Below are positions 11,931-15,148 of a stretch of DNA of 28,645 nt, in pieces. Position numbers and translations under genes: made by a program. Within the stretch, counting starts at the first letter, position 1. Every line of letters starts with the position of its first letter. Origin of the DNA: a virus (lineage: Duplodnaviria; Caudoviricetes). The notes beneath the pieces were generated by a model. The model was not told the DNA's origin, ran no database searches, and was given only the letters and a program-made list of their open reading frames with translations. The DNA lies in the IMG/VR virus record IMGVR_UViG_3300017909_002071, positions 1-28,645 of that record, one strand, 5' to 3'.

Positions 11931-11958
11931 AAAAAAAAGGGGCGTCCGAAGACACCCC
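11931..11958 (-). terminator. Intrinsic terminator after the major capsid gene (T-phi position)
   Basis: Minus-strand RNA GGGGUGUC-UUCG-GACGCCCC followed by U8, about 20 nt after the capsid stop. Confidence 0.93.
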
Positions 11959-11978: not shown

Positions 11979-13124
11979 TCAGAAGGCAGCGTTGCCAGTA
12001 GAACCAGGAGCTGCGCCAGCAATCAGTTCGACGCAAGCAGCAGGGTTCAGGTAGTCAGCGCCCATGGCGAGACGACCAAGGATCACGTCGCCCTGATAGA
12101 TCACGGAGACGTCACCGCTGGTGACTTGCACTTGAGGACCGATAGCTTCCACGCAGGCAGCACCTTCACGCTGGAAGATGAGTCCGCAGCTGTTAGCAAA
12201 TTCGGTTTCTTCACCGTACTCGTTGTTGATACCAGCAACGTCGTTAGCGGCATCTTCAACGGAGGGAGACACAAAGGAACCGGTGTTGCCAGGATCGGTA
12301 ACACCAGGGTTGGTAGCAGATCCAGTACCATACTTGGTACCATACTTGCTGAAGAACGGAATGTTCATCGACTTGAAGATCTTGATACCAGCGATCTCAA
12401 CGATGCCGTTGCCACGCTGACGTGCGGTACCTTGCTCATCGCGGTTGATCAAACCAGAGTCGCCAACCTTTTGGATCAGTTCATAGTACTGACGGGGGTT
12501 CAGAACACCCACGCGACCTTCAGAGCTGACACCCTTCTCATCCATAGCAGCAGCTGCGTCATAGAAAGCAGCAACCAGCTTGTCAGCATCGTAGGCATCA
12601 GAAGCGTTAGCGGTAGCGCCGACGCGGACCTGAGTACCACCGGGCTCAACAAAGCTAGACTTGGTGATAGGAGATGCAGCACGTGCACCGCGAGCGATAG
12701 CACGGAAGATCAGACGGTCATACTTTTCTGCGAGAGCGTAGCCGATCTTACGGCTGATCTCAGAACGCAGGTCGTAGTGTGCGAGAGTTTCGTCGAGGTC
12801 GTAGACAAAAGCGCTGGAGATTAGCAAATCGTCAACGGTGACGGTCTTCTCAGCCACCGGCGGCGCACCGTCGGTGTTACCGAGGATTGCGTTGCCAGGG
12901 GTATGATACTCAGCCGTGGTACGACCGGTATAGATGAACTGCATAGACTTACCGTTGGTAAGAGTACGCTTGGTCACCAGGTCACGAGCAATAGCATTGT
13001 ACTCGAAACCTTTGAACATCTCACCGCTAAAAAGCTTGAGATACAGAGCGCGGGCGTCACCCGTGCTGTTAGACTGACCAGGGCGAGTCAAACTCGTGGT
13101 CAGAGTAGAAGTTTGTTGTGCCAT
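11979..13124 (-). CDS. Major capsid protein (T7 gp10-like)
   Basis: 381 aa; ALYLKLFSGE, RTLTNGKSMQF, DDLLISS and GYALAEKYDR motifs. Confidence 0.97.
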   Translation of the reverse strand: MAQQTSTLTTSLTRPGQSNSTGDARALYLKLFSGEMFKGFEYNAIARDLVTKRTLTNGKSMQFIYTGRTTAEYHTPGNAILGNTDGAPPVAEKTVTVDDLLISSAFVYDLDETLAHYDLRSEISRKIGYALAEKYDRLIFRAIARGARAASPITKSSFVEPGGTQVRVGATANASDAYDADKLVAAFYDAAAAMDEKGVSSEGRVGVLNPRQYYELIQKVGDSGLINRDEQGTARQRGNGIVEIAGIKIFKSMNIPFFSKYGTKYGTGSATNPGVTDPGNTGSFVSPSVEDAANDVAGINNEYGEETEFANSCGLIFQREGAACVEAIGPQVQVTSGDVSVIYQGDVILGRLAMGADYLNPAACVELIAGAAPGSTGNAAF

Positions 13125-13284
13125 TATACAGGAGTAAGATTAAAATAGACTTGCTCCCAAACGTTTGGAAATTTTTTGTTGAAAATGTTGTGGTCTATCC
13201 CACCGTCTAGACGGTTAGAGGTATCGGCGTACCGGCTCCAACCAATGCAAGGGAGGTCCGACTCTGAGGTGCCTCCCAAGCTGT
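13125..13284 (-). promoter_or_regulatory. Structured non-coding leader of the major capsid gene
   Basis: 160-nt intergenic region with several inverted repeats: 13251-13277, 13213-13243, palindrome 13202-13215, 13190-13203, palindrome 13157-13168. Confidence 0.55.
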
Positions 13285-13443
13285 TTACAGAAGACCTTTA
13301 AGGCACTTCTTTTGTTTACGACATTCAGGTTTTTTATCACCGCAATGTCCGCAACGCTTGAACACTACCTCTGCACCAGTAGGTGCTGGGGTATATGGAA
13401 CAGGAGTTGCTTTAGCAGCTTTAGATTGATGCTTACTGGGCAT
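13285..13443 (-). CDS. Small Cys-rich basic protein (52 aa)
   Basis: From ATG 13443: MPSKHQSK...RCGHCGDKKPECRKQKKCLKGLL; start overlaps the end of the upstream peptide ORF. Confidence 0.6.
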   Translation of the reverse strand: MPSKHQSKAAKATPVPYTPAPTGAEVVFKRCGHCGDKKPECRKQKKCLKGLL

Positions 13444-13549
13444 AATGAGGATTGCGATACTCAACACCGCGGTAACGGAGCACTTCCACGTGGTAGCGCA
13501 CGGCGCGGCGTCGGTTGTTTTTGATAAAACGAATGAGGTTCATGGACAT
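13433..13549 (-). CDS. Small YRG-motif peptide (DUF4278-like, 38 aa)
   Basis: Below the ORF-track cut-off; hand translation MSMNLIRFIKNNRRRAVRYHVEVLRYRGVEYRNPHYAQ; LxYRGVxY is the DUF4278 signature and the ORF lies directly behind a glutamine-II riboswitch. Confidence 0.8.
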   Translation of the reverse strand: MSMNLIRFIKNNRRRAVRYHVEVLRYRGVEYRNPHYAQ

Positions 13550-13566
13550 AGTTCGTACAAGATAAA

Positions 13567-13615
13567 CCTAACCCCCGTTCCATGGTTAGGCAACATGCGT
13601 CCCGAAGGATGAACG
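13567..13615 (-). promoter_or_regulatory. Glutamine-II riboswitch (Downstream-peptide RNA motif)
   Basis: Minus-strand RNA CGUUCAUCC-UUCG-GGACGCAUGUUG-CCUAACC-AUGGAACGGG-GGUUAGG: 5' CGUUC complementary to GAACG, UUCG-capped hairpin, CGCA junction, 7-bp CCUAACC/GGUUAGG stem; followed by a YRG peptide as expected for this motif. Confidence 0.88.
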
Positions 13616-13624
13616 TACGAAATA

Positions 13625-14704
13625 TTAACCGATTGCAGGTGTAGTCAGTGCAACCGGTGTGGACTCAGCAGCAGCCAAGTCAAGTGGGAAGTTGTGAGCG
13701 TTACGCTCGTGCATTACTTCCATACCGAGACCAGCTCGGTTGAGGATGTCAGCCCAAGTATTGATTACACGACCATCAGCGGATTGAATGGACTGGTTAA
13801 AGTTAAAACCATTCAAGTTAAACGCCATAGTAGACACACCAAGAGCAGCAAACCAAATCCCCACAACAGGCCAGGCAGCCAGAAAGAAGTGGAGACTACG
13901 AGAATTATTAAAGCTAGCGTATTGAAAAATGAGACGCCCAAAGTAACCATGAGCAGCCACGATGTTATACGTCTCCTCCTCTTGCCCGAACTTATACCCA
14001 TAGTTTTGGCTAACATTTTCAGTCGTTTCACGGACCAAGCTAGAAGTAACAAGGGAACCGTGCATAGCTGAAAACAGAGAACCACCAAAAACGCCAGCAA
14101 CCCCAAGCATATGGAAGGGATGCATAAGAATGTTGTGCTCAGCTTGGAAAACAAACATGTAGTTGAACGTTCCCGAGATGCCCAATGGCATTCCATCAGA
14201 GAAACTGCCTTGTCCGAAAGGGTAGACAAGGAATACAGCTGTTGCGGCAGCGACTGGTGCAGAATATGCGACAAAGATCCAAGGCCTCATACCTAGTCGA
14301 TAACTAAGTTCCCATTCACGTCCCATGTAAGAGAAGACGCCAATGAGAAAGTGGAAGACAACGAGTTGGTATGGTCCTCCATTATAGAGCCACTCATCAA
14401 GTGAAGCGGCTTCCCAGATTGGGTAAAGATGTAGCCCGATTGCGTTACTTGAGGGAACGACTGCTCCTGAGATGATGTTGTTTCCATAGAGTAGAGATCC
14501 GGCAACGGGTTCACGAATGCCATCGATGTCCACAGGGGGAGCAGCGATGAATGCAACCAAAAAGCAGACGGTTGCGGTCAGTAGGGTTGGGATCATCAGA
14601 GTCCCGAACCAGCCAACGTAAAGTCGGTTGTTAGTAGAGGTTACCCAAGAACAAAATTCTTCCCAGGCAGACCTCCGTTGTTGTTGAGAAAGTACAGCGG
14701 TCAT
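13625..14704 (-). CDS. psbA: Photosystem II reaction centre protein D1
   Basis: 359 aa, unmistakable D1 ([34 protein letters not shown]); GREWE form (Glu130, high-light type); uninterrupted. Confidence 0.99.
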
Positions 14705-14797: not shown

Positions 14798-15148
14798 TCA
14801 GAGCTTGTACTTCAGACCGACTTTAGTACCATAGGAGTTGGTGTCGTCGGACACGAAGGAGATCTCGCCATAGACGTCGAGACGCTTGGTGGCGGCAACA
14901 GAGCCGAACACCTTGCCAGTAAGTTTAGTTTCAGCTTCACCGTCATCAGGTGAGAAGACGGTAGGACCAGCTTGCACACCCCAAGAGGTGAGACCATTAC
15001 CATCTTCATAACCAAGATGGAAATCAGTAGCCATGCCCTGATAGTTGGAACCGTTAAAACCAGAATTGTTTTCGACGTTCACATACGGACCTGCCAGTGC
15101 GGGAGCAGCGGCGAGGAGGGTTGCGGGGAGGATAGCGAGGAATTTCAT
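14798..15148 (-). CDS. Secreted/outer-membrane beta-strand protein (cyanobacterial/cyanophage type)
   Basis: 116 aa; signal peptide MKFLAILPATLLAAAPALA, then alternating amphipathic beta-strand pattern ending KVGLKYKL. Confidence 0.7.
   Translation of the reverse strand: MKFLAILPATLLAAAPALAGPYVNVENNSGFNGSNYQGMATDFHLGYEDGNGLTSWGVQAGPTVFSPDDGEAETKLTGKVFGSVAATKRLDVYGEISFVSDDTNSYGTKVGLKYKL

Follow-up and report, generated by a model that had tools for sequence, protein, structure and literature searches.

A glutamine-II riboswitch and a separate structured leader RNA upstream of the capsid gene in T7-like cyanophages

What does a glutamine-sensing RNA do in the late region of a cyanophage, between a photosynthesis gene and the capsid gene, and does the supply of capsid protein depend on it? 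The question is raised by a 28.6-kb fragment of a T7-like cyanophage (the window, which is the whole stretch of DNA analysed; the record is 63 per cent complete and the genes lie on the minus strand), where an earlier note had described a glutamine riboswitch, a YRG peptide and a Cys-rich peptide wedged between psbA and the major capsid gene. The source is a marine cyanobacterial virus, and its major capsid protein is 96.8 per cent identical to the counterpart in Synechococcus phage S-RIP2. That observation is real and largely of a known kind, and it is the neighbouring leader RNA that merits further work. The locus appears to hold two modules: the riboswitch likely governs translation of the YRG peptide only, while a folded leader, predicted to be cut, likely gives rise to a stable and heavily translated capsid mRNA. 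We put the probability of this reading at roughly 0.5. The features on which the argument draws are these:

13625..14704, minus strand: psbA (photosystem II D1), a 359-aa ORF matching annotated D1 genes; the upstream neighbour, with its stop at 13627-13625
13566..13618, minus strand: glutamine-II (Downstream-peptide) riboswitch aptamer; Rfam RF01704, 51.3 bits, E 7.3e-10, full model
13552..13558, minus strand: region of translation initiation for the YRG ORF; in the absence of glutamine it is predicted to form a helix with the aptamer 5' arm (13621-13615), 7 bp long in MFE and centroid folds
13433..13549, minus strand: 38-aa YRG peptide, DUF4278-like, with one repeat; the ORF contains LRYRGVEY
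13285..13443, minus strand: Cys peptide with four invariant Cys, 52 aa from an ATG or 60 aa from an upstream GTG; 39 homologues
13246..13281, minus strand: leader hairpin P1 with a conserved loop and compensatory changes; the slot is filled in relatives by a T-loop mini-tRNA or a full tRNA
13213..13243, minus strand: leader core hairpin P2/P3, with C over AYAM internal loop, YNMG tetraloop and covariation; found once in the window
13203..13214, minus strand: first palindrome, 12 nt; four variants in 61, 7, 5 and 2 loci, all self-complementary as RNA
13190..13203, minus strand: leader hairpin P4, 4 bp with a GANAGA loop; 100 per cent of cells paired, one compensatory pair
13157..13168, minus strand: second, perfect palindrome, 12 nt; its sequence differs between phages and its symmetry is kept
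11979..13124, minus strand: major capsid protein gene (T7 gp10-like; PF21703, E 1.2e-71), with its ATG at 13124
11939..11958, minus strand: intrinsic-terminator-like hairpin 3' of the capsid gene, 8-bp stem and 8-T tail

The covarying leader of the capsid gene occupies 13281-13125 on the minus strand, just outside the region that had first drawn attention, and the 160 nt ahead of the capsid gene are the most conserved part of the stretch. Capsid-gene loci were fetched from relatives (80, from which 5 with a match close to the contig start were removed), and the leader core was present in all 76 capsid loci compared, in 71 by pattern and in 5 as a variant read by eye. Scanning in the opposite direction, from the leader side, 120 loci were found and 80 examined; a capsid gene followed in 77, and the other three were truncated. 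There is one copy per genome.

Several lines of evidence indicate that the element is an RNA. Across 31 cores (of 110 distinct, picked for near-equal length), the three-helix structure shows 69 cells in which both sides have changed, where shuffling gave 19.9 (0/500), counts that ignore kinship, and controls in which the helices were slid scored far lower. Tetraloops of the class labelled YNMG and swaps of the closing pair from G-C to A-U occur in all four sequence sets. A core descriptor, applied to leaders of at least 200 nt with duplicates excluded, matched 69/69 cyanophage leaders, 57/62 leaders found with the capsid of pelagiphage HTVC011P, 28/37 found with the capsid of Rhizobium phage RHEph01 and 14/16 named isolates, including a roseophage and a Ralstonia phage; these counts are partly fitted, since a first descriptor was over-strict on the lower stem (20/63 and 21/37) and was relaxed once after its misses had been seen, and the controls still stood at 0 for coding and antisense sequence and at no more than 0.03 for shuffles. 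The distant phages share the core hairpin alone, with neither the tRNA mimic nor the palindromes. The window leader by itself is not unusually stable (z -1.51). Many unpaired bases of the core are invariant. Its upper stem differs in length among leaders and its loop is constant, a pattern suggesting that the loop itself is recognized and not that a cut is placed at a measured distance.

Upstream tRNAs and a weak mascRNA match in Syn5 aside, the core had no Rfam match at E ≤ 10 in the window or at E ≤ 5 in 48 related loci. Identity with manA was considered and rejected, there being no Rfam match and the manA alignment row being unlike the leader. A GTDB scan with a 17-nt pattern returned mostly chance matches, with a full model match in 3 of 80 among the matches listed. 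Full leader matches were seen in unrelated MAGs labelled Porticoccaceae, Rubrivivax and Dehalococcoidia (L360, L346, L329), which are probably mis-binned phage contigs.

The position upstream of the core is taken by one of several elements that share a geometry. A full tRNA fills the P1 slot in 8/60 loci and in NATL1A-7 and ends at the core's first base. T-loops, those of tRNAs included, lie 13-14 nt from the core boundary in 55 of 137 leaders, a spacing held by all 55 of the T-loop leaders and in line with that of a tRNA mimic, in which a coaxial stem would place the T-loop some 13 nt from the 3' boundary. The hairpin of the window's type (type A) has its loop 15-16 nt from the core in 80 of the 137, again in 80/80 of its kind, and by the predicted fold this spacing includes about two bulged bases. 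RNase P and RNase Z follow substrate rules in which tRNA-like T-loop spacing guides cutting, and tRNA punctuation and mascRNA-type mimics use a tRNA-like shape to specify where a longer RNA is cut. The P1 loop of the window, being of type A, departs from the canonical T-loop, so that it is position and spacing that suggest recognition by such nucleases. The Syn5 P1 matched the mascRNA model weakly (E 2). Metatranscriptome runs contributed assembled contigs of relatives only, in small shares. Ahead of the pelagiphage core (capsid genes L457-L511), a long near-perfect hairpin stands in place of the tRNA mimic and is possibly an RNase III site.

T7 overproduces its capsid protein from a dedicated promoter. 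An annotated phage promoter stands at the leader's position in T7 and phiKMV, and the core hairpin is absent from both and from SP6. Syn5, which carries the hairpin, has two promoters only and transcribes more than 37 kb from one promoter (according to the accessible part of PMC3950665), so that how such phages make enough capsid protein becomes a question; a processing site together with a terminator would give a discrete capsid message. In the two-module reading, the tRNA or its mimic would be recognized by RNase P and/or RNase Z of the host, whose cut would release the capsid message from the long late transcript, and the terminator downstream of the capsid gene would supply the 3' end. A factor would likely dock at the invariant C/AYAM internal loop; the simplest candidate is a phage head protein, which would amount to autoregulation, and a host factor is the other. 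The palindromes would likely protect the RNA by making it double-stranded, or else allow pairing between two messages. The capsid message would be stabilized. The leader would stand in for the promoter that T7 devotes to its capsid gene, and it would shield capsid synthesis from the riboswitch. One conserved RNA, for which a cut position is predicted and whose loop does not vary, opens the question of capsid supply to experiment in cultured S-RIP2, S-TIP37, P-SSP7 and Syn5.

A further possibility, compatible with processing and offered tentatively, is that the leader RNA associates with itself: its palindromes would base-pair from one capsid message to another, giving dimers or assemblies of more than two. 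Palindromes of at least 10 nt occur in 119 of 151 leader tails against 19.1 expected, and in 109 of 142 cases the loop of the second palindrome is self-complementary, against an expectation of about 1 in 16. Its symmetry is kept while the sequence changes, through 23 different central hexamers (some of which come from AT-rich chance palindromes), and one variant of the first palindrome is self-complementary only by way of G-U pairs. Any palindrome, however, may fold as a simple hairpin, and the leaders of the Ralstonia phage and MW202733 have no palindromes at all, while the pelagiphage leader has AT-rich ones only.

The same elements can be assembled into a broader proposal, somewhat unlikely as a whole, in which an ancient RNA device replaced the capsid promoter of T7 throughout a large T7-like branch infecting cyanobacteria, SAR11, roseobacters, rhizobia and Ralstonia. 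Here the message would be cut at the tRNA or its mimic, the head protein would bind at the invariant internal loop and so set its own supply, and in cyanophages the sequence-free palindromes would make capsid messages dimerize or assemble further.

Parallels exist for most parts of this arrangement. The gene 10 cassette of T7 (phi10 promoter, short leader, T-phi terminator) likewise places a dedicated device before the capsid gene and a terminator after it, but T7 is without the core hairpin, and the device here is a covarying RNA behind a tRNA or mimic. With tRNA punctuation and mascRNA mimics the leader shares the tRNA-shaped cut mark, whereas the product of interest here would be the downstream mRNA, and the cutting is predicted. 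The accessible part of Fremin 2023 (PMC10690425) lists candidate RNAs before PHA00201 capsid genes (DNAVirus_231, 3706, 3823, 3864 and 5397), which are also predicted structured RNAs fronting T7-like capsid genes, mostly aquatic; as described there they lie at most 25 nt from the start codon, span 43-80 nt, have 1-3 covarying bases and are given no function, a comparison made by description rather than by alignment. Part of the leader motif may already be contained in the alignments of Fremin 2023 or Weinberg 2017. A literature search that most subscription papers lay beyond found no description of the capsid leader, and the accessible portions of publications on LUZ100, the S-SBP1 transcriptome and NblA held nothing on it.

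The riboswitch itself is secure. The earlier note's intact glutamine-II aptamer just after psbA scores 51.3 bits over the full length of RF01704, for which the gathering score is 33 bits, and no other Rfam family matched anywhere in the window. The 38-aa ORF that had been placed behind it lies at 13549-13433, and its start is 17 nt past the aptamer end. Counting the window, 46 capsid loci have 1.2 kb or more of upstream sequence; the 3' half of the aptamer was found in 38 of them and was absent in 8, and the YRG peptide was found in 37. The reverse scan gave 120 viral riboswitch loci, 116 with a YRG peptide, the remaining four having at most 30 nt of downstream DNA. P-SSP7, S-TIP37, S-CBP4, SS120-1, S-TIP28, S-RIP2 and S-SBP1 carry the riboswitch, S-RIP2 with the complete module; it is absent within 1.9 kb in Syn5 and S-SRP01 and within the 0.8-0.9 kb examined in four other isolates. 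The module is of a known kind and common in T7-like cyanophages, and the 2010 alignment of the Downstream-peptide motif already includes the P-SSP7 phage copy as a row (PMC2864571 supplement). Found at roughly four loci in five, the module suggests that these abundant viruses sense the glutamine of the host while infecting it.

Glutamine binds this aptamer class and turns translation on, as the accessible part of PMC6212724 describes for a Prochlorococcus copy, and phages go unmentioned in the main text of that paper so far as it was accessible. In the ligand-free fold of the window the aptamer 5' arm pairs with the seven bases preceding the YRG start codon; without glutamine the arm would occupy the peptide's initiation region and glutamine would free it, and translation of the Cys ORF may be coupled to that of the YRG peptide. 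Across 117 riboswitches the anti-initiation pairing was better for the cognate than for the non-cognate partner in 61, which is not significant (p 0.14), and against shuffles p was 0.013. The picocyanobacterial glutamine-II systems with DUF4278/IF17-like peptides, as given in PMC2864571 and the accessible part of PMC6212724, have the same aptamer and the same YRG-type short ORF behind it. The phage copy differs from them in lying within the late region and in encoding a one-repeat peptide of 13-39 aa in most cases, and some phage relatives nest a whole gene in the aptamer P2 loop. These genes of 54-60 aa lie entirely within the loop, with the stop at its 3' edge (L002, L007, L012, L019, L048, L051, L058, L073 and L079), and all four that were tested match phrog_628; S-SBP1 gp32 (L592:1845-2009) also sits in the P2 loop, by position. 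Other marine phages carry glnA-type glutamine riboswitches (accessible part of PMC9004378).

The peptide had been called unannotated, which is so for its counterpart in P-SSP7, whereas S-TIP37 has it annotated as a hypothetical protein. Its kinship to DUF4278 is the other detail to be corrected. The test set comprised 29 of 56 viral peptides of at least 20 aa plus the window peptide; 22 of these 30 matched PF14105 weakly, one of them above the cut-off of 25.3 bits, and the window peptide had no match even at E ≤ 10, while the YRG..Y motif is kept. Y-R-G-x-x-Y is present in 107/107 distinct viral peptides, which range from 13 to 60 aa (the final Y lay outside the selection criterion), and L24, Y26, R27, G28 and Y31 are invariant among 27 aligned peptides. 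The assignment of the peptide behind the riboswitch to the DUF4278 type is therefore supported, and the 13-residue YRG core offers a handle for finding the DUF4278 target.

Whether the peptide acts as a viral inactivating factor that binds host glutamine synthetase (GS) and shuts it down at high glutamine is another matter. Control by a glutamine switch, the DUF4278 likeness of 22/30 peptides and retention in 37/46 loci would suit that role, which the accessible part of Klahn 2018 (PMC6212724) proposes for IF17-like peptides of the host. The viral peptides, however, span the DUF4278 part only (mostly model positions about 37-57) and shrink to as few as 13 aa, and none matched the NCBIfam models for the GS inactivating factors IF7/IF17. 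By these profile matches the YRG peptide appears to resemble DUF4278 and not the GS-binding part of IF17; according to the accessible part of Klahn 2018, DUF4278 proteins this short are missing the sequences at the C-terminus that IF17 requires for GS binding. We regard a GS-inactivating peptide as unlikely.

It might also be asked whether the conserved element ahead of the capsid gene acts as DNA, as a promoter for a phage RNA polymerase or as a symmetric protein-binding site. The type-A loop does resemble the Syn5 promoter as printed in the accessible part of PMC3950665, and T7 has a promoter at the same place. Yet the window holds no extra copies beyond chance (the record being 63 per cent complete, and Syn5 having only two promoters), T-loops or tRNAs take the place of the loop in 55/137 leaders, and an RNA is favoured by the G-U pairs, by the YNMG tetraloops and by the compensatory changes, so that a DNA element is improbable.

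The proposal with which the locus was first presented, that the riboswitch serves as a nitrogen checkpoint tuning capsid synthesis, would work through coupled translation or termination; it is not supported and is quite improbable. It draws on proximity, with a leader or capsid gene within 1.2 kb behind the riboswitch in 59 of 64 viral loci having at least 1 kb downstream, on the overlap of the YRG and Cys ORFs, and on a database protein, P0039, that fuses both peptides. Against it, the riboswitch is missing in 8/46 loci, and where present the aptamer lies anywhere from 231 to 916 nt from the capsid start, behind ORFs that change from relative to relative. No terminator was found after the aptamer in the window, a run of at least 5 U follows it in just 6 of 129 relatives, and the capsid start lies 160 nt beyond the stop of the Cys ORF, behind a leader of its own. 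Since the leader accompanies 76/76 capsid loci and the riboswitch 38/46, at 231-916 nt, the two modules are very probably independent of each other.

Highly improbable is a self-cleaving ribozyme by which the core would cut itself off the upstream tRNA: the core begins at a tRNA 3' end, the position that the accessible part of PMC10879173 describes for the structured theta ribozymes of gut phages, and many of its unpaired bases are invariant, but it has no Rfam ribozyme match at E ≤ 5-10, no HDV-type double pseudoknot is apparent by inspection, the supported structure consists of simple hairpins of which distant phages share a single one, self-cleavage would make a tRNA mimic unnecessary, and unlike theta ribozymes the leader is always tied to a capsid gene.

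The Cys ORF is an interchangeable passenger, found in 10/46 capsid loci with at least 1.2 kb upstream. The 52-aa Cys-rich ORF overlapping the end of the YRG ORF was located as had been claimed (13443-13285, an overlap of 11 nt). C31, C34, C41 and C47 are invariant in 18 aligned sequences, and the four-Cys part is likely a zinc-binding tail; the peptide has no Pfam family above cut-off and no named lead in the ESM Atlas. P0039, the 83-aa fusion of YRG and Cys peptides, is a single case and may be a gene-calling or sequence artefact.

Further upstream, a sigma-70 promoter consensus with a 12/12 match lies at 15493-15464 on the minus strand, within a DUF6321 ORF and upstream of an OMP-like gene and psbA, and a similar site is present in three relatives; it could be a host-polymerase promoter driving psbA and the riboswitch. 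The OMP-like beta-barrel gene is at 14798-15148 in the window and directly behind the YRG peptide in L017, L025, L031, L033, L042-L044, L049 and L080, where coupling to the riboswitch is possible.

The heads of the Cys-peptide relatives resemble the N-terminal arm of the capsid protein, and the Cys ORF can be grouped with other small ORFs that open with residues similar to the capsid N-terminus. A profile of that terminus scored at least 10 bits with 21 of 718 small ORFs, against 0.0 for shuffled sequences. ORF heads compared with the capsid of their own genome scored 26.5 against 21.5 +/- 0.6 when permuted (65 pairs, with kinship ignored and a few ORFs mis-picked), and the window's own pair of Cys ORF and capsid scores poorly (9). 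ORFs of 30-60 aa upstream of the leader (e.g. L063, L137, L082 and L067) start with a copy of this arm, in many cases nearest to the one in the capsid of the same phage, and continue with tails that are acidic, basic or Cys-rich; such ORFs may be capsid mimics or cargo.
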